Source: Candidatus Iainarchaeum sp. (GTDB lineage Archaea > Iainarchaeota > Iainarchaeia > Iainarchaeales > DTGL01). Taken from it: a stretch of 11,469 nt of DNA. The notes beneath the pieces are model-generated. The model was not told where the DNA came from. It saw nothing but the letters and a program-made list of their open reading frames with translations, and did no database searches. The stretch lies in the NCBI GenBank assembly GCA_038736825.1, contig JAVYME010000034.1:1-11469 (forward strand), written 5' to 3'. The translations under genes and the position numbers were made by a program. Positions within the stretch are counted from its first letter, which is position 1, and each line of letters begins with the position of its first letter. This document shows positions 2,159 to 11,469 of the stretch, piece after piece.

Positions 2159-5100
2159 TTGTTGAAAAAGCCAAGTATTTCTAGAGAACAGCGACTCTTG
2201 CAAAGGATTAAATATTTCAAAAGCATAACTGTTTGTGGTGTTCTGTTGAGGCAAAAGGGTTTATCTCCGTTCCTTGTCGGCATTCTAATTGGTTTGGCTG
2301 CAGTTGGAGCAACCCTTGCGGTTGTCGGCATTGTAAAAGCCACAGAGCAGGGAAAAACCCCGCCGGCTGCCAAGCCAACAATCACTCCCACAATAACCCT
2401 TGCTCCAACAAAAACGCCAGCCAAAACCCCCACTGTTAGCCCCACGCCACAAAAAACCCCTCAAAAGACACCCACTCCTACTCAAACCCCAACACCAACT
2501 CCAATTCCAGACGAGGAAAGCGCATGCCAGACAGTGGATGGCGCTAATGGAATTACTGGATTGAAAGCGGTTGAAGGAGTGCTTTTCAATTGGGATTTTG
2601 AAAGCATTCAATATGATACTTGTGAAATAACAGGCAAAAACAGTTTTTTTTGCGATCCAGTCCAGTTTTCGCTCAGTCTTGCTTACAGGCTTGAAAGAAT
2701 AAAGGGCTTTGCGGAAAGCGGTGAAAGGGATAAAGCGCTTGCCTTAACAGAATTCAACTCTCTCTTAATTGCAGACAATTATTCGGAAGACTTCAAAAAG
2801 GATTTTGCGCATTATTATTCCAGCAGGTTCTATGAAACCCCTGCATGGTTTGCGCCTTGGAAACAATACTTTGAAGATTCGAAAAGGCTGAGGTTTTCTC
2901 CAGCCAACCTAAAGCCGAACGGTTCAGGGGTTTTCAGGGTAAAACTCAAACTTGAATTTGACAAAAACAAATTCGAGTTTTTTTCAAGCGGAAAGCCGGC
3001 GGCAAAAATAACTGTTGAATTCTCCAAAAAAGGCGATTTTGAAGGCAAAAAATCAATATTTCACGATATTCCGTTCAATGGAATGGTTGGCACAACAAGG
3101 GTTGATGAAGATGGCAACATTGAAAGAAAGGACTATGGAATTGGCTTTAAGGAAAACAGTCCAGTGCTTTTATTGCAGCAAGGCAGCCAGCTCGTGACTT
3201 CTAAAACAAAAAGCATAGTGAAAGAATTTGAGGTGATTTTGCAGGAAAATTTCAATGAAACCAACCAGTTTGGCGGCACAATTGCCTTTATTGATGAAAA
3301 AAAAGGCTTGATTGTTTTCACTCCGCAAAACGCGAAAACAGTGGTTGCCGCTGTTGAACCAAAAAACCGCAATGCCTACCTTTTCTACTGGATTTTTGAA
3401 AACAATAAATCAATCGGGCAAGGAAAGAAAAGCATGGCATGGTGGTCCCTTGTTGACAGCAAAAAAGCACCTGAAAACATTCAGCTCTCACAGTTTTCAA
3501 AACCAGTCCAGGACCTGAACCGCCAGCTCGCTGATTCATGCAAAAACGCAAAAGCGCAAGGAGGAACATCTTTTGGCTTTCACATAACCAGCATTCCAGA
3601 AGGCAAAAAAGCACTCCTCAAATCCCATTATTTCACTCCAGCGAAAAGCAATGTGTTCTTGGAAAACGCTTGCCCTGAAACAGCAACGCTTTTCACTGAA
3701 AACAGCCAAACTTCAACCTCGCAATTGCAGTTAAGCCTTTCCGACACCAACAATTCAATAAAACAATTCCATGAAATAATAGCCCTCACAATAAAACGCG
3801 AAATATGCGTTATCAACAAGGAAGGACAAGCATACTTTCAATGGAATGCTGAAACCCTCAGCGAACAAGAAAACAGGGCATTAAAACTTTTCAGGATTGA
3901 AGAAGCCAAGCCCTGCAAGGAAAGCGATTCAGGAAACAATCCAGAGCAAGGGGGAAAAACCGAAACAAAAAGTGAAAACAAAACAGACAATTGCTTTTTT
4001 GGAATATGGTTAAAGGAACACTATTGCGAAGGAGCAAAAATAGGGGACAAAATCTACAATTGCAACAATTATTGCAAGGAAAAATACGGGGGAAAGGCAG
4101 CAGGCTCTTGCCAAAACAATGCGCAAAACATTGGTTACTGCCTTTGCACCAACATACCAGCGCCTGAAAACCAAGAAAAAGAAGCATTCCTTGTATCTGA
4201 CAAGGACTGGCGAGCAGTTCTCTCGTTTGTACCGGTTGCCATCAGGACTGGAAGCGATGGCAAGACAAGCATGAAACCATTGCTGGTATTCCATGAAGAA
4301 GCATCCGGCTTTGATGCAGACTCAATAATATACTTCCTCCAACAATACAAGCCAAAAAAACTCACAATCATTGGCAGCACTCCAAGCGAATTAGACAGAA
4401 TACTCTTTGCAGACAGCCAAAACATGGTGCCCGGAAAAAGCTTTGGCGCAGGCCTAAAAACAGAACAGGTTTCAAGAACCAATCCAAAAGACTACAAAAA
4501 ATATTTTTCAAGCACTGAAAGCGCGGTTTTAGTGGAGGACAATTACGAGCTAGCGCTCTTGGCTTCAGCCTATGCCTCGCTCATTGGAGCGCCCCTTTTA
4601 ATAGAAGGATTTAATAGCGAGCAAGCACCAGAGGGAGCCAAAATTATTTGCATTGGCAACCCTAACGCTAATTGCAGTGAAAAATATTCGCTTTCAGAAC
4701 TGCAAAAAAAATACTTAACCGCTACAAAAACAGACAAAATAATCCTTGTCAACCCCCAAGACTTGGAATTGCACTTCAGTGAAAAATTTAAAGAATTAAA
4801 ACCAGAGAAAAGCAAAAATCCAGTCAAGGAATTATATGGAAAAACATCCTTGGCAGCGCCAATACTTGCTAGTGCAAAACAGGAACTGATTTTGAGCGTG
4901 AACTCAACAGATTATTTGGCAATTGATCGATTCATTGAAGGCAAAATTGCAAGCCTTAACCCTACCGCAAAATACCTTACAATAATTGCTTCTCCACCTG
5001 CAATCCCGATGGGCAAAAAACCAAACAATTATTTGAGCGCTGGTGCAATGGATGACTGGTTTGAAGAACTGGACAGGCATGTTTATGCTGACTTGGATGG

Positions 5101-6319
5101 CGACTACCTTTCAGACCTTGTGGTTGGAAGAATCATGGGCTTAACAGTTTCAGATGCTTCAGCCTATACTGCAAGAGTCCTTTTCTATAACGAAATATTG
5201 AATTCAAAAAATTTCACCAACATTTGGTATCCTGATTTTCCCTTTAGATTGGGGACTGCGGCAAAAATGGACCGCCTTCTTTCCATGGCAGGATACCAAA
5301 AACAAAGCGTTCAAGTGTTAAATGCAGGCGGTCCCAAAAAAATCCAAAAAGAGCATTTGACGAACAAGCTTTGGATTGGATACTTAGACCATGGATGGTT
5401 CAATGGAGGGCACGACACGTTCACAACATATGGTTTGAGGGAAGCATCGGTTTGGTTTGAGCCAGCGGTTTTGTTTGTTGATGCTTGTTCTACTTGCGCT
5501 TTTGAAAAAAGCGAGTCAAGCTATGGTCTTTTCTGTGCCCACGCAATAAGGAGAGGGGCAATCGCATACTATGGAGCGGTTGAAGACACTTGCCTGCCAT
5601 GGGACTTGCAGTTAATGGTTTTAAGCGAAATACTCAACGGCAAAGATGTTGGCAGCGCGTTAAGAGATTCTGGCAGCAAGGGAGCTGTTTACCCTGTGCT
5701 TCGCTATGATCCATTCTTTGTATTGATTGGTGATCCAACCCTAAAGCCTGTTTTTGCAGGAAAATCCCAAGAAATGTATTCAGGCAGTTCAGTGAATGTT
5801 CAAATAAATCAAGCAAAAAAAGAGATAGAAATAACCATTCCACCGCAAAAACTGGACATTACTGTCGACTTTAAAGCAGAAACTGCACTGAAAAACTATT
5901 TCATTGAATACAAAGGGTATGTTGGGGAAACCCCTCTGGGGGACATGACATCACACTGTGCTGGCTACATTAAGTCCTCAAGCAGGGCATCGGAAGAAGA
6001 GTTGTCCGAAAACTCGTTCGAGTTTGTATTGGAAAAACCAAAAGACTTGGTTCAATTCAAAAATGTGGAGCTCTGGGAGGGCTCCACCAAACTGCCAATA
6101 ACAGTGACTGCTTCCAAGAGAAGCGCATTTGAAGACGAAGAATTGACAATAAACAACCAAAGTTCAGAAAAATTCCAAATCAACCTTTCAGTGCCAAAGG
6201 GGAACAACAAGTATTTCTATTTCAAAATCAGCAGATACGCTCACTCTTCAATCAGCCAAGAAGAAATAATAAAAAGCAAAAACCTTGAAGGCTTAAAGGC
6301 GGTAATCCAATATGAATAG
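2159..6319 (+). CDS. Giant (about 1,360-1,386 aa) membrane-anchored mosaic surface protein with a clan-CD (C25/gingipain-like) cysteine peptidase core
   Basis: A single uninterrupted 4.1-kb ORF covers this span, and all antisense ORFs over it are short. Numbering is from TTG 2159. Residues 38-59 form a TM (FLVGILIGLAAVGATLAVVGIV) and 66-117 a Pro/Thr stalk. Residues 119-585 are an orphan region and 612-663 a Cys knot. Residues ~675-950 are alpha/beta repeats of the type AFLVSDKDWRAVLSFVPVAI...PLLVF...KKLTIIGS. The C25-like blocks are YLTIIASPPAIPMG, YADLDGDYLSDLVVGRIMG...ARVLFYNE, YLDHGWFNGGHD (His1078, 5390-5392), VLFVDACSTCAF (Cys1110, 5486-5488), GAIAYYGAVEDT and FVLIGDPTL. A ~200-aa C-terminal beta-rich region follows. 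There is no in-frame ATG near the 5' end, so the start must be TTG: 2159, 2198, or 2246 (the last with GGTG 5 nt upstream). Confidence 0.9.
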   Translation: MLKKPSISREQRLLQRIKYFKSITVCGVLLRQKGLSPFLVGILIGLAAVGATLAVVGIVKATEQGKTPPAAKPTITPTITLAPTKTPAKTPTVSPTPQKTPQKTPTPTQTPTPTPIPDEESACQTVDGANGITGLKAVEGVLFNWDFESIQYDTCEITGKNSFFCDPVQFSLSLAYRLERIKGFAESGERDKALALTEFNSLLIADNYSEDFKKDFAHYYSSRFYETPAWFAPWKQYFEDSKRLRFSPANLKPNGSGVFRVKLKLEFDKNKFEFFSSGKPAAKITVEFSKKGDFEGKKSIFHDIPFNGMVGTTRVDEDGNIERKDYGIGFKENSPVLLLQQGSQLVTSKTKSIVKEFEVILQENFNETNQFGGTIAFIDEKKGLIVFTPQNAKTVVAAVEPKNRNAYLFYWIFENNKSIGQGKKSMAWWSLVDSKKAPENIQLSQFSKPVQDLNRQLADSCKNAKAQGGTSFGFHITSIPEGKKALLKSHYFTPAKSNVFLENACPETATLFTENSQTSTSQLQLSLSDTNNSIKQFHEIIALTIKREICVINKEGQAYFQWNAETLSEQENRALKLFRIEEAKPCKESDSGNNPEQGGKTETKSENKTDNCFFGIWLKEHYCEGAKIGDKIYNCNNYCKEKYGGKAAGSCQNNAQNIGYCLCTNIPAPENQEKEAFLVSDKDWRAVLSFVPVAIRTGSDGKTSMKPLLVFHEEASGFDADSIIYFLQQYKPKKLTIIGSTPSELDRILFADSQNMVPGKSFGAGLKTEQVSRTNPKDYKKYFSSTESAVLVEDNYELALLASAYASLIGAPLLIEGFNSEQAPEGAKIICIGNPNANCSEKYSLSELQKKYLTATKTDKIILVNPQDLELHFSEKFKELKPEKSKNPVKELYGKTSLAAPILASAKQELILSVNSTDYLAIDRFIEGKIASLNPTAKYLTIIASPPAIPMGKKPNNYLSAGAMDDWFEELDRHVYADLDGDYLSDLVVGRIMGLTVSDASAYTARVLFYNEILNSKNFTNIWYPDFPFRLGTAAKMDRLLSMAGYQKQSVQVLNAGGPKKIQKEHLTNKLWIGYLDHGWFNGGHDTFTTYGLREASVWFEPAVLFVDACSTCAFEKSESSYGLFCAHAIRRGAIAYYGAVEDTCLPWDLQLMVLSEILNGKDVGSALRDSGSKGAVYPVLRYDPFFVLIGDPTLKPVFAGKSQEMYSGSSVNVQINQAKKEIEITIPPQKLDITVDFKAETALKNYFIEYKGYVGETPLGDMTSHCAGYIKSSSRASEEELSENSFEFVLEKPKDLVQFKNVELWEGSTKLPITVTASKRSAFEDEELTINNQSSEKFQINLSVPKGNNKYFYFKISRYAHSSISQEEIIKSKNLEGLKAVIQYE
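2354..2509 (+). repeat. Low-complexity Pro/Thr(-Lys/Gln) stalk-coding repeat inside the giant ORF
   Basis: Translates to KTPPAAKPTITPTITLAPTKTPAKTPTVSPTPQKTPQKTPTPTQTPTPTPIP. The DNA is an iterated ACN-CCN pattern. The mirror-image Gly/Val-rich ORFs on the minus strand (2122-2445, 2285-2611) are artefacts of this repeat. Confidence 0.8.
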
Positions 6320-7418
6320 GCAAAAAACAGCAGTGCTTTTGTTGTTTTTTTCTTTCTTTTTGCTTTCATTTAATGCTCTAGCCCTAGATGTAAAAATAAA
6401 CGTTAAAAATTCTTTTGCTTCAGGAGAGACTGTTTTTTTTGAATACTCTATAACAACAGACAAAAGCATTGAAATTGCATTTGTGCCCCAAATAGAATGC
6501 GAAGCCATGCCTCTTCCAACAACTCCACAGAAAAACATTCGCTTGGAAGCAGGAAAAACCTTTTCAGGAAGATTAAACGGTGCTCTTGCAGACGAAGCAC
6601 TATACCGGCAGGACTGCAATGCAAAAATCAAAATTCTTTCGCCTACAACAGCAACATTCCAGAAAAAGTTTACGGTTATTCCGCCAAAAGCCATTGATTT
6701 GGAATTGAAAACCTGCAAAAGCCAGGAGTGCCTTGAACAGGAAAAAACATTCATTTCCGGCACAACAGTTTTCCTTTCTTTTTCCTCCAGTGCAGAAAAA
6801 CCAGCAATTGATGCCAACCTAGAGTTTCCGGATGGAACAATAAAAAAAATCTCGCTGCCCTATTCCTTCAATGCTGCAAGCATTGGAACCTATTCCCTTA
6901 CCGTAAAAGCCTTTGCGCCAGAATTCAAGGAAGAAACAAAAACAACCAGTTTTGCGGTTTTGGAAAAAGAACCCGAAATCATTGAAGAAAAATACGGTCC
7001 AGAATTTGAATTAAAAGCCTGCAAAGAACAGGAATGCATTAATGAAAGCAAAGAATTCAGTGCCGGAGAAAGCGCATTCCTGGCATTCAATTCCCCATAC
7101 GAGGGCATTCAAGTGAACGCCATAATAGTGTCACCTGATGAAACACGAAAGGAAACAAGGCTGCCGGCAAAAATAGAACTATCACAAGCAGGCCCTTACA
7201 TAATAGAGGCTGTTGCGGAAAAGAAGGGCTTTTCAGGGCAAACAAGGATAATGGCGCTTGAAGTGAAACAACCTAGTTTCACTCCATTGCCTGAAAAAAA
7301 AGAAGAAGGGGAAACAATTGATTTTGTTCTCGTTGGAGGCGCGCTCTTTGCAATAAGCATTATAGCCCTGATAATACTCATTTATTTTGAAAAAAGAGAG
7401 GAAAAAGTGGAATTATAG
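6312..7418 (+). CDS. Type I membrane protein with three homologous beta-sandwich (Ig-like) repeats
   Basis: ATG 6312 overlaps the giant ORF's stop (ATGAATAG, 6312-6319). An imperfect SD, AGGCGGT, lies at 6297-6303. The signal peptide is MNRQKTAVLLLFFSFFLLSFNALA. Three ~95-100-aa repeats share F..GE/T..F[FL].[FY][SN]: FASGETVFFEYS, FISGTTVFLSFS and FSAGESAFLAFN. Repeats 2 and 3 each open with ELK.CK.QEC. The C-terminal anchor is IDFVLVGGALFAISIIALIILIYF followed by EKREEK. Confidence 0.85.
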   Translation: MNRQKTAVLLLFFSFFLLSFNALALDVKINVKNSFASGETVFFEYSITTDKSIEIAFVPQIECEAMPLPTTPQKNIRLEAGKTFSGRLNGALADEALYRQDCNAKIKILSPTTATFQKKFTVIPPKAIDLELKTCKSQECLEQEKTFISGTTVFLSFSSSAEKPAIDANLEFPDGTIKKISLPYSFNAASIGTYSLTVKAFAPEFKEETKTTSFAVLEKEPEIIEEKYGPEFELKACKEQECINESKEFSAGESAFLAFNSPYEGIQVNAIIVSPDETRKETRLPAKIELSQAGPYIIEAVAEKKGFSGQTRIMALEVKQPSFTPLPEKKEEGETIDFVLVGGALFAISIIALIILIYFEKREEKVEL

Positions 7419-7460: not shown

Positions 7461-8219
7461 ATGCAATTATCACAGGCAAAAGCAATAATAGAAGAGGCAT
7501 TGCAAAAAAAGCACTTGTTGTGCGTTGTCGGCAACTGTTTTGTTGAATACTGGGGAAGGGCTGCCTCAAAGCTTCCAAAAGGCAAGAGAATGCTTTTGGT
7601 TAAAGGCGATTCCAGCTTTGCAATACACCAAAACCGTTTGCTTAGGCCTGTAAACTATATGATGAATGCAATTGTTTCAAGCGAGGTGCGTGAAGGCGTT
7701 CTAGTGGTTTGTGCTGAGAAAAGAAAGCCTTTGGAAAAAATAATTGTTTCTTTTTATGATGTGAGTTTTGCCCAGGCTTTTGAAATGAATGATTCAAGCG
7801 ATTTGCGGTTGTTTGGCTCGGAAGCTGAATTAAGCAATGAGTTAATGCAGGACTTGTCTTTTATTGAGCCTGGCTTAAAGCCAGCTAACCGGGAATGCCC
7901 TTTCAGAAAGGGAATGGTGGATATAATAGCGGAGGATTCTCAAGGCAATCTTGTAGTGATTGAGGTGAAAAGGAGAAAGGCTGACTATAAGGCGGTTTCA
8001 CAGCTTCAAAGGTATATGAAGGAGGTTGAAAGAATCAAGGGCAGGAAAAGCCGTGGCATTCTAGTGGCACCAGAAATTCACAAAAAAGCAAGGGAAATGC
8101 TGGAAGAATACGGTTTGGAGTTTGCAAAACTGGATTTTGAAATAGGCAATCCCAGTGCAAAAATAAAGGGAGTTAAAAGAAAGCAGTGCACTCTGGCGGG
8201 TTTTTCAAGTGAAAAATGA
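7461..8219 (+). CDS. nucS: Endonuclease NucS / EndoMS (mismatch-specific RecB-like nuclease)
   Basis: At 252 aa it is the typical NucS length. The N-terminal half has C.VEYWGRAAS.L..G.R.LLVK.D.SF.IHQ......PVNYM. The C-terminal half carries the RecB-family motifs GMVDIIAED (Asp154, 7920-7922), VVIEVKRRKA (Glu168/Lys170, 7962-7970) and VSQLQRY. The C-terminal tail QCTLAGFS (8184-8207) resembles the PCNA-binding (PIP-like) peptide known for archaeal NucS. Confidence 0.9.
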   Translation: MQLSQAKAIIEEALQKKHLLCVVGNCFVEYWGRAASKLPKGKRMLLVKGDSSFAIHQNRLLRPVNYMMNAIVSSEVREGVLVVCAEKRKPLEKIIVSFYDVSFAQAFEMNDSSDLRLFGSEAELSNELMQDLSFIEPGLKPANRECPFRKGMVDIIAEDSQGNLVVIEVKRRKADYKAVSQLQRYMKEVERIKGRKSRGILVAPEIHKKAREMLEEYGLEFAKLDFEIGNPSAKIKGVKRKQCTLAGFSSEK

Positions 8220-10964: not shown

Positions 10965-11469
10965 TCATTTAAGCAATGCCTCTATTTCAAGCAACCTATT
11001 GTATTTTTCTGTGCGCTCGCTTCTCGCCACAGCTCCAAACTTGCATTGCGTTGCCCCAATGCCAACCGCGAGATCCGAAATAAAGGAATCACAGGTTTCA
11101 CCGCTCCTGTGAGAAATAATCACACTCCACTTGTTCTTGAAAGCAAGCCTTGCTGCCTCAAAAGATTCAGTGAGAGTGCCTATCTGGTTGACTTTTAAAA
11201 GCAGGGAATTGCATGCCTTCAACTCTATTGCTTTGAGAATGCGCTTGGTGTTTGTAACCAGCAAGTCATCACCCACAATTTGCAGCTTTCCACCAAACCT
11301 TTCAGTGAATTCCCGCCAGCCACTCCAGTCCTCTTCTGCAAAACCATCCTCTATGGAATAAATTGGAAAACGCTTGCACAAGCCAGCATAATATTCTCCC
11401 AATTCCCTTGGAGAGAAAGCCCTTTCCCCAAGCCAGTATTTTCCATTTTCAAAAAACTCTGAAGCCGCT
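10965..11469 (-). CDS. eno: Enolase (phosphopyruvate hydratase), C-terminal ~167 codons; 5' end outside the window
   Basis: The minus-strand frame is open to the window edge, so the TTG at 11402 in the track is not the real start. Upstream codons read AASEFFENGKYWLGERAFSPREL. Diagnostic blocks are PIYSIEDGFAEEDW, LQIVGDDLLVTN, LLLKVNQIGTLTES and ISHRSGETCDSFISDLAVG...GAVARSERTEKYNRLLEIE. Stop is at 10965-10967. Confidence 0.93.
   Translation of the reverse strand, partial: AASEFFENGKYWLGERAFSPRELGEYYAGLCKRFPIYSIEDGFAEEDWSGWREFTERFGGKLQIVGDDLLVTNTKRILKAIELKACNSLLLKVNQIGTLTESFEAARLAFKNKWSVIISHRSGETCDSFISDLAVGIGATQCKFGAVARSERTEKYNRLLEIEALLK

Follow-up and report, generated by a model that had tools for sequence, protein, structure and literature searches.

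The origin of the cis-defensins, the cysteine-stabilised alpha/beta (CS-alpha/beta) peptides, is debated. Bacterial cis-defensins (xanthusin-1, five classes) have been mined from proteins of 30-130 amino acids (aa) only (Cardoso et al. 2024, PMC11561630); the word 'archaea' is absent from the main text of that study, and domains embedded in larger proteins were invisible to its catalogue because its pipeline dropped longer proteins. Separately, DPANN genomes have been noted to encode secreted peptidases of the C25 and M64 families (PMC9563170). Here we describe an eight-cysteine (8-Cys) module at residues 586-663 (3914..4147) of a giant, secreted or surface C25-family cysteine peptidase, encoded on the 11,469-nucleotide (nt) stretch that we call the window, which covers an entire contig (JAVYME010000034.1) of a DPANN (Candidatus Diapherotrites) metagenome-assembled genome. 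An earlier note on this DNA had read the last six cysteines as a defensin-type knot, a kind of peptide not known to have been described in archaea, and our literature search likewise gave no specific report of one. We suggest that the module is a previously undescribed DPANN domain, the C-terminal half of which may be a cysteine-stabilised alpha/beta unit.

The host open reading frame (ORF) spans 2159..6319 on the + strand (1386 codons), as do, on the same strand, all features of the protein given below. Residue numbers follow this 1386-codon frame and not the NCBI start: the NCBI model P0001, named 'C25 family cysteine peptidase [Candidatus Diapherotrites archaeon]', is 100% identical to the ORF, begins at codon 30 (nt 2246) and comprises 1357 aa. 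Within the ORF, cysteines at residues 586, 612, 623, 635, 639, 651, 661 and 663 (nt 3914-4147) follow the spacing C-x25-C-x10-C-x11-C-x3-C-x11-C-x9-C-x-C, placing 8 cysteines within 78 residues compared with 22 across the whole 1386-residue protein. The last six, YC-EGAKIGDKIYN-C-NNY-C-KEKYGGKAAGS-C-QNNAQNIGY-C-L-C, have G-S-C as their GxC element and carry the six-cysteine signature of the CS-alpha/beta superfamily (C...CxxxC...GxC...CxC). Their loops (11/3/11/9/1) are exactly as had been claimed, and the two further cysteines placed upstream, 586 and 612, are also there. A relaxed CS-alpha/beta regular expression matched 0 of 20,000 shuffles of the host protein and occurs a single time in the six frames of the window.

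The picture of an autonomous mini-domain between flexible linkers did not survive structure prediction. From an alignment of 20 copies of the module, AlphaFold2 (AF2) models residues 582-670 as one compact domain of about 85 aa, with no disordered linker (predicted local distance difference test (pLDDT) 91.9, predicted template modelling score 0.77); a 2-sequence alignment had given a poor model (pLDDT 51). The stretch SDSGNNPEQGGKTETKSENKTDN, previously taken for a hydrophilic low-complexity linker, contains conserved D, G, P and D-x-C positions and is predicted as ordered beta structure (pLDDT 79-96), so that Cys586, Cys612 and the supposed linker together make up the N-half of the domain. 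This beta-rich N-half (3914..4027), which starts at Cys586 and is closed by Cys623, comprises strands at model residues 19-21, 26-28, 30-32 and 36-43, the last of which forms a hairpin with a strand at 46-53. The C-half (4025..4147, Cys623 to Cys663) follows with a helix at model residues 54-62 (CNNYCKEKY, aa 635-643, 4061..4087), where pLDDT in that block reaches 92-97 and the CxxxC element holds C635 and C639, and with a beta-hairpin (4100..4150) formed by strand 67-72 around C651 (AGSCQN, aa 648-653, the GxC element) and strand 78-83 around C661 and C663 (GYCLCT, aa 659-664, the CxC element). In the model the C-half follows the CS-alpha/beta layout, in which a helix bears CxxxC and a hairpin bears both GxC and CxC.

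The cysteines would probably pair as C586-C612, C623-C651, C635-C661 and C639-C663. Three related units, in P0137, P0015 and P0034, keep the fourth, sixth and seventh cysteines (C4, C6 and C7) and are without both C5 and C8 (P0137 ...VDCDGFPHGSLGQVCATDSNGYGYCLYE; P0015 and P0034 ...DCFTYFGGSTRGVCWNNVC...). The joint absence of these two is consistent with a C5-C8 bond, which corresponds to the C3-C6 bond of CS-alpha/beta peptides.

The N-half leads to a different family. In the window it reads C-x-E-S-D-x-G-x-x-P ... D-x-C ... L-x-E-x-Y-C, and it carries the motif C-x-[DE]-[ST]-D-x-G ... D-x-C ... L-x-E-[YF]-Y-C ... C of a six-cysteine (6-Cys) repeat, CxDSDGG ... DxC ... LxEYYC ... CPxGxxCxxGxC, that ends in a short hairpin, C-x3-5-C-x4-C (examples are P0029, P0018 and P0010). 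When the 8-Cys alignment was compared with 16 units of this repeat, hhalign gave 98.8% probability (E 7.7e-17) over columns 3-59, that is, C1 through C4/C5. Judged by these sequence comparisons, the N-half is homologous to the widespread archaeal 6-Cys repeat, with which it shares an identical C1-C4 spacing (x25, x10, x11), similar taxa and an occurrence in secreted or surface proteins. Cys623, the first cysteine of the defensin-like signature, is the conserved LxEYYC cysteine of the repeat and is common to both halves. Unlike the repeat, which forms arrays of 3-10, the module has a predicted helix and a longer hairpin, two more cysteines, and a single or double copy. The short terminal hairpin of the repeat would be replaced, in the C-half, by the CxxxC helix and the longer GxC/CxC hairpin; a 6-Cys unit may have gained the helix and one extra disulfide to become the 8-Cys module, a path that the variants lacking C5 and C8 would fit. 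Neither the repeat nor the module has an NCBIfam model and the repeat has no Pfam model. When the whole module and the repeat were searched by sequence and by profile against the Protein Data Bank (PDB), the N-half had no relative of solved structure; the top match, a factor H CCP domain (E 0.18), was judged to be chance.

To define the family, we ran an exhaustive hidden Markov model (HMM) search seeded with two modules, those of the window protein and of P0003, which returned 131 proteins at E<=1e-3 in two classes. The first is made up of about 17 proteins, which together have about 20 full-length 8-Cys copies; the second, more numerous class consists of 3-10 tandem repeats matching only the first ~55 positions (query 5-56/61). 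The full-length copies share the consensus C-x-[DE]-[ST]-D-x-G-x-x-P ... D-x-C ... L-x-E-[YF]-Y-C followed by Y-[ND]-C-x2-[YF]-C ... G-x-C ... G-[YF]-C-x-C, with a mean identity of about 35%. Conservation of the cysteine spacing in homologues, named beforehand as a test, was borne out: C2-C8 are invariant in the 20 aligned copies, 18 of which also have C1, and conservation of the glycine in GxC is 90% or higher. The copies in P0133 and P0054 have two additional cysteines each, which probably form a fifth bond, and the second copy in P0009 has lost C1 and gained a cysteine nearby. Every member with a named source is DPANN or an unclassified 'archaeon' (Diapherotrites/Iainarchaeum, Aenigmarchaeota). 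By comparison, a word-indexed search with the whole protein found only eight relatives, word-indexed searches with the module or with the C-halves matched nothing (the query's own protein included), and 274 pattern matches from a genome-collection scan that used the alignment of two modules yielded zero tblastn-confirmed relatives.

Among the eight relatives, P0003 (1481 aa, JGI; locus L001 8001-12446) has the same eight cysteines at identical spacing. It is 44% identical to the window protein in the N-terminal domain and 41% in the 8-Cys module, which lies ~450 aa further along and is followed by an Ig-like segment and an M64-like HExxH zincin, with no C25 domain. P0002 has the N-terminal domain (55%) and the middle region of P0003 without the module and without a peptidase. 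The pattern looks like domain shuffling among DPANN surface proteins. At the module start, all copies have equivalents of the window's ESDSGNNPEQG (3920-3950, aa 588-598), such as DSDGG or DTDNGNDPE, and we take this [DE]-[ST]-D-x-G-x-[ND]-P-E element to resemble acidic DxDxG calcium-binding loops.

How closely does the C-half resemble known CS-alpha/beta families? Searched against 24,736 Pfam models, a 60-aa segment of the window protein matched only SLR1-BP (E 0.053), Gamma-thionin (0.24) and Toxin_3 (0.5). The 20 C-halves, searched singly, matched SLR1-BP in 9 cases (best E 1.9e-4), Gamma-thionin in 3, AtDEF-like and Toxin_3 in 2 each and Defensin_like in 1. Against 177,635 PDB sequences, the C-half profile retrieved five chains at E<=10, all of them scorpion CS-alpha/beta toxins with their cysteines in register: MeuNaTx-5 (E 0.0049), BeKm-1 (0.1), gamma-KTx 2.2 (0.57), noxiustoxin (2.5) and BeM9 (8.7). 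The window copy alone had eurocin, a fungal defensin, as its sole PDB match (E 1.3), and the P0054 copy matched noxiustoxin and margatoxin. EGF and knottin families, which the earlier note had named as possible better matches, were not found by Pfam at E<=10 with the 60-aa segment or at E<=1 with the 20 C-halves, and we ruled that reading out; all Pfam and PDB matches of the C-half are CS-alpha/beta. From these searches the resemblance appears consistent and specific, with each single match weak.

The closest known entries are PF07333 (SLR1-BP), PF00304 (Gamma-thionin) and PF00537 (Toxin_3) among families, and MeuNaTx-5 (2LKB), BeKm-1 (1J5J), noxiustoxin (1SXM) and eurocin (2LT8) among structures. 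Like CS-alpha/beta peptides, the C-half has the six-cysteine signature with loop lengths in the usual range. Unlike those peptides, which are free, secreted and ~40-55 aa long, it sits in an 85-aa, 8-Cys domain of a 1357-aa protein from an archaeal host, its first cysteine belongs to the preceding beta unit, and it has no conserved positive charge. With the bacterial cis-defensins, some classes of which have long N-terminal tails or a fourth disulfide (PMC11561630), the module shares the prokaryotic occurrence of a (here predicted) cysteine-stabilised helix motif; the bacterial peptides stand alone and are secreted at 30-130 aa, whereas the DPANN module is embedded in a large protein. The C-half cannot yet be counted in the CS-alpha/beta superfamily: its signature and predicted secondary structure agree with membership, whereas the curated thresholds are not reached and the free-peptide architecture is missing.

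What the module might do is best approached through the company it keeps. It stands directly before C25 bodies in P0009 (two tandem copies), P0011, P0017, P0020, P0039 and P0061 and before M64 bodies in P0003, P0056, P0113 and P0130; it also occurs beside CARDB, Ig/MG2, lamin-tail and dockerin domains, and is C-terminal in P0106. The C-half without the N-half was never seen in this sample. Scanning GTDB species genomes with an alignment of the module and the start of the peptidase gave 39 loci (L004-L042) with the peptidase unit, mostly DPANN. Only 4 of the 39 have the 8-Cys module in the position before that unit; two have the plain 6-Cys repeat there, and the other occupants are another cysteine module (about six loci) or dockerin-like repeats. 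A metagenome scan added two loci only, both with a beta-helix in place of the module. Net charge varies widely among C-halves (mean -0.5, range -7 to +8; window +2, P0003 +8), and the family average for the whole module is -4.3.

Between module and peptidase, TNIPAPENQEKE in the window runs into the conserved start of the peptidase unit, EAFLVSDKDWRAVL (4148..4183), and is a short form of a family motif, N-x-K-x-M-x-K-Y-S-x-K-E, that most of the 39 relatives have ahead of their peptidase unit whatever lies upstream. Kept with or without the module, this Lys-rich junction is therefore not a module-specific release site. In the 39 loci the junction continues as -[AV]-F-L-[IV]-S-D-x-x-W; at window positions 4148-4200 it is shortened to ENQEKEAFLVSDKDW.

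The varied contexts, the 4/39 frequency, the variable charge and the generic junction together point to an interchangeable, retained accessory module and away from a prodomain or a cationic antimicrobial. We favour, with somewhat better than even confidence, the reading that residues 586-663 form an extracellular, four-disulfide domain whose C-half has a cysteine-stabilised alpha/beta arrangement of the defensin or scorpion-toxin kind, and that this domain is a protease-resistant accessory module retained as a rigid recognition, binding or presentation element. The surface context of the protein includes a probable N-terminal hydrophobic anchor, a Pro/Thr (PT)-rich stalk and neighbouring genes for lipoprotein-like or secreted products; on such a cell-surface stalk the module would sit directly before the peptidase unit and, we infer, would not be released, staying attached and binding targets as CS-alpha/beta scaffolds do. 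On this proposal it would be one of several interchangeable modules that DPANN archaea put ahead of their secreted C25 and M64 peptidases as well as of other surface proteins. The arrangement recalls the dockerins, the pre-peptidase domains and the haemagglutinin/adhesin domains that gingipains carry, in that the module is a shuffled non-catalytic unit on C25 and M64 peptidases; its fold differs from the gingipain adhesin and dockerin modules, to which it is likened by architecture only. Whatever the outcome for the fold, two unannotated Cys-rich module families are defined here, and the secreted C25/M64 peptidases of DPANN episymbionts are seen to have a cassette-like N-terminal accessory position, a slot that bears on how DPANN recognize or process host-surface or environmental proteins.

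Several results weigh against this reading, most of them concerning the alpha/beta character of the C-half. First, the profile check against defensin families that the earlier note had called for came out divided: although the weak matches are all CS-alpha/beta, every Pfam match of the C-halves lies under its gathering score, the window copy scoring 17.4 bits with SLR1-BP (cut-off 22.7) and 11.6 bits with Gamma-thionin (cut-off 25.1). Second, hhalign gave the C-half profile 82% probability against four K-toxin fragments and 4% in the 6-Cys repeat control, a figure that is not independent evidence since the K-toxin set was picked from matches of the same profile. Third, structure prediction, also proposed beforehand, placed the cysteines on the expected helix and hairpin elements and yielded no significant Foldseek match to a defensin. 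The low-confidence model had ranked the AtD90 defensin and brazzein at the top of the PDB with E about 1; for the confident 89-aa model the top E was 1.6, a scorpion alpha-toxin chimera ranked second (E 2.3, 34 columns, template modelling score 0.30), and BFVD returned nothing significant. As the Foldseek matches are not significant, the fold assignment rests on secondary structure and cysteine placement, and agreement with the CS-alpha/beta layout is at the level of secondary structure, the helix-sheet packing and the disulfide pairs being putative. Fourth, in the hhalign register the C5 positions of the module and of the 6-Cys repeat fall together, so that a rearranged disulfide map would be needed between the two forms. 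Finally, the suggested binding role comes from modularity, which indicates no ligand.

The best-surviving alternative, which we hold to be possible though on balance unlikely, is that the domain is a unitary archaeal fold whose cysteine spacing is convergent, with a disulfide map or topology that differs from the CS-alpha/beta one or an arrangement that arose independently of the cis-defensins. The homology of the N-half through C4/C5 to an all-beta 6-Cys repeat that has no CS-alpha/beta similarity speaks for it, as do the sharing of Cys623, the presence of an N-half beside every sampled C-half, and the insignificant Foldseek and sub-threshold family matches; it has to contend with a predicted helix and hairpin that hold the cysteines exactly as in CS-alpha/beta peptides, with weak matches that all fall in that superfamily with cysteines in register, and with the presence or absence of C5 and C8 together. 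A further-reaching proposal, which seems to us rather less likely again, takes the C-half for a true CS-alpha/beta fold in which all three canonical disulfides form; it would be the first known from archaea and would represent an intermediate evolutionary state. It would have the beta-rich 6-Cys repeat gain the helix and the C5-C8 disulfide, while variants without the C5-C8 pair persist; DPANN surface proteins would in that case record one way in which a cysteine-stabilised alpha/beta motif can arise, and in a bolder version the DPANN units could be related by descent to the bacterial and eukaryotic cis-defensins. Convergent and homologous origins of the C-half are not separable with the present data. 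If the predicted disulfide map holds, DPANN archaea have a CS-alpha/beta-like unit within a larger domain of surface peptidases, next to related units with and without the extra helix disulfide; the scaffold would then extend to the third domain of life, and a testable route would lead from a beta-hairpin repeat to the CS-alpha/beta motif.

A further alternative assigns the module to latency, as an intramolecular inhibitor or prodomain that holds the adjacent peptidase inactive until removed. Gingipains have an inhibitory prodomain at the N-terminus, and some defensin-fold and Kazal proteins are protease inhibitors; the module stands just ahead of peptidases of two unrelated kinds, C25 and M64, and proteins of the 6-Cys repeat open with Kazal inhibitor domains (P0018, E 1.1e-7; P0010, E 5e-6). 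A dedicated prodomain would, however, be expected to co-occur with its peptidase, whereas only 4 of the 39 peptidase relatives have the module and unrelated modules fill the slot elsewhere, a result on which we ruled out a prodomain as the main explanation; the module is also found in proteins that are not peptidases, ends P0106 as its C-terminal part, and is present in two tandem copies in P0009. We consider a latency role improbable.

Least credible, and in our view very improbable, is the pro-defensin proposed in the earlier note, in which the cis-encoded C25 peptidase, of a gingipain type that cuts after Arg or Lys and processes its own precursors, would excise the 6-Cys knot at Lys-rich linkers as a free antimicrobial or membrane-active peptide: the CS-alpha/beta-like signature with its GxC...C 'gamma-core', the mildly cationic window copy, the strongly charged P0003 copy and the Lys of the downstream ENQEKE would suit it, but a folded N-half and not a linker precedes Cys623, so that excision would cut a disulfide-bonded domain, net charge varies across the family, M64 metallopeptidases and peptidase-free proteins have the module too, the K-rich motif is part of the peptidase unit and is kept in relatives without the module, and the C-half, embedded as it is in a large protein, is not the free, small, secreted and usually cationic peptide that a functional defensin is.

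Apart from the module, the host protein has the following layout. A hydrophobic N-terminal segment (2261..2335, aa 35-59, LSPFLVGILIGLAAVGATLAVVGIV) reaches, over 19 residues, the highest mean Kyte-Doolittle value in the protein (2.58) and is probably a signal or membrane anchor, judging from its composition. Next come a Pro/Thr-rich stalk (2348..2512, aa 64-118), read from the sequence, and a conserved N-terminal domain of ~460 aa and unknown function (2513..3901, aa 119-581) that is common to P0002-P0007, matches no Pfam family in our scan and accounts for relatives of 30-55% identity across about 32-39% of the query. Beyond the module, a conserved pre-catalytic region of the peptidase unit (4175..4918, aa 673-920) is kept in the 39 loci. 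In P0039 this region matches CW_binding_2 above the cut-off of 24.9 bits (E 5e-6, 27.4 bits) and in P0009 just below it (E 8e-5, 23.6 bits); the window protein's own pre-catalytic region has no such score. The gingipain-type Peptidase_C25 catalytic domain (PF01364; 4919..5746, aa 921-1196) follows, with E 3.4e-10 and 40.2 bits against a cut-off of 23. It contains D-H-G at 1077-1079 (His1078, nt 5390-5392) and D-A-C at 1108-1110 (Cys1110, nt 5486-5488), and we take His1078 and Cys1110 to be the catalytic dyad by the clan CD His-Gly/Ala-Cys rule. With PF01364 above threshold and the clan CD motifs, the protein is assigned by sequence to peptidase family C25. A C-terminal region follows the catalytic domain. 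Two minus-strand ORFs over the module region, 3891..4187 and 4010..4294, were dismissed because the + strand ORF has clear homologues.

Other cysteine-rich units accompany these proteins. A second module, CxDGTxYGxCSxxKPxYCxxGxLIxxCxxCGC...C..DGSC, often stands directly upstream of the peptidase unit (L009, L021, L023, L024, L028, L036 and the N-terminus of P0020) and has zero Pfam matches. Residues ~320-375 of L009 (...GYCDVEWSSVCETLECSECDCLVACEEECAVNGWRVGYCTPDICSC) and ~200-245 of L021 hold another Cys-rich stretch that fits CxxxC...C...CxC; the L009 stretch weakly matches Defensin_2 (Arthropod defensin) at E 0.032, below the cut-off, and the two may represent a second defensin-like module type in DPANN. 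The Kazal inhibitor domains that start tandem 6-Cys repeat proteins lie at aa 36-72 of P0018 and aa 32-70 of P0010, both above the Pfam cut-off; a candidate at aa 18-45 of P0012 (E 0.0094, 16.4 bits) falls below it. A few relatives of this otherwise DPANN peptidase unit also turn up in bacterial bins, L019 (Bacillota), L029 (Patescibacteria) and L030 (Omnitrophota), and in Methanosarcinales bins, L010, L013, L026, L036, L038 and L042, placements that could reflect mis-binned episymbiont contigs or transfer between partners.

The remaining genes of the window fall on both sides of the peptidase. Upstream, 226-1278 and 1303-2091, both on the - strand, are adjacent paralogues that share ...AKKCDFEKY[AV]S[IF]AEK[MH]SG...; neither product belongs to a Pfam or NCBIfam family, and that of 226-1278 combines a PT-rich linker with a signal, LLLSGC, of lipoprotein-like type. 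Downstream, 6312-7418 (+) overlaps the end of the host ORF by 8 nt and may be co-expressed with the peptidase; it encodes 368 aa with an N-terminal signal, a C-terminal membrane anchor and an internal duplication, LKTCKSQECLEQEKTF / LKACKEQECINESKEF, and has zero family matches. The gene at 7461-8219 (+) encodes a NucS endonuclease (NucS_N E 1.1e-19, NucS_C E 1.4e-28), and 10965-11402 (-) encodes the C-terminal part of an enolase (E 4e-63) that runs off the contig end.

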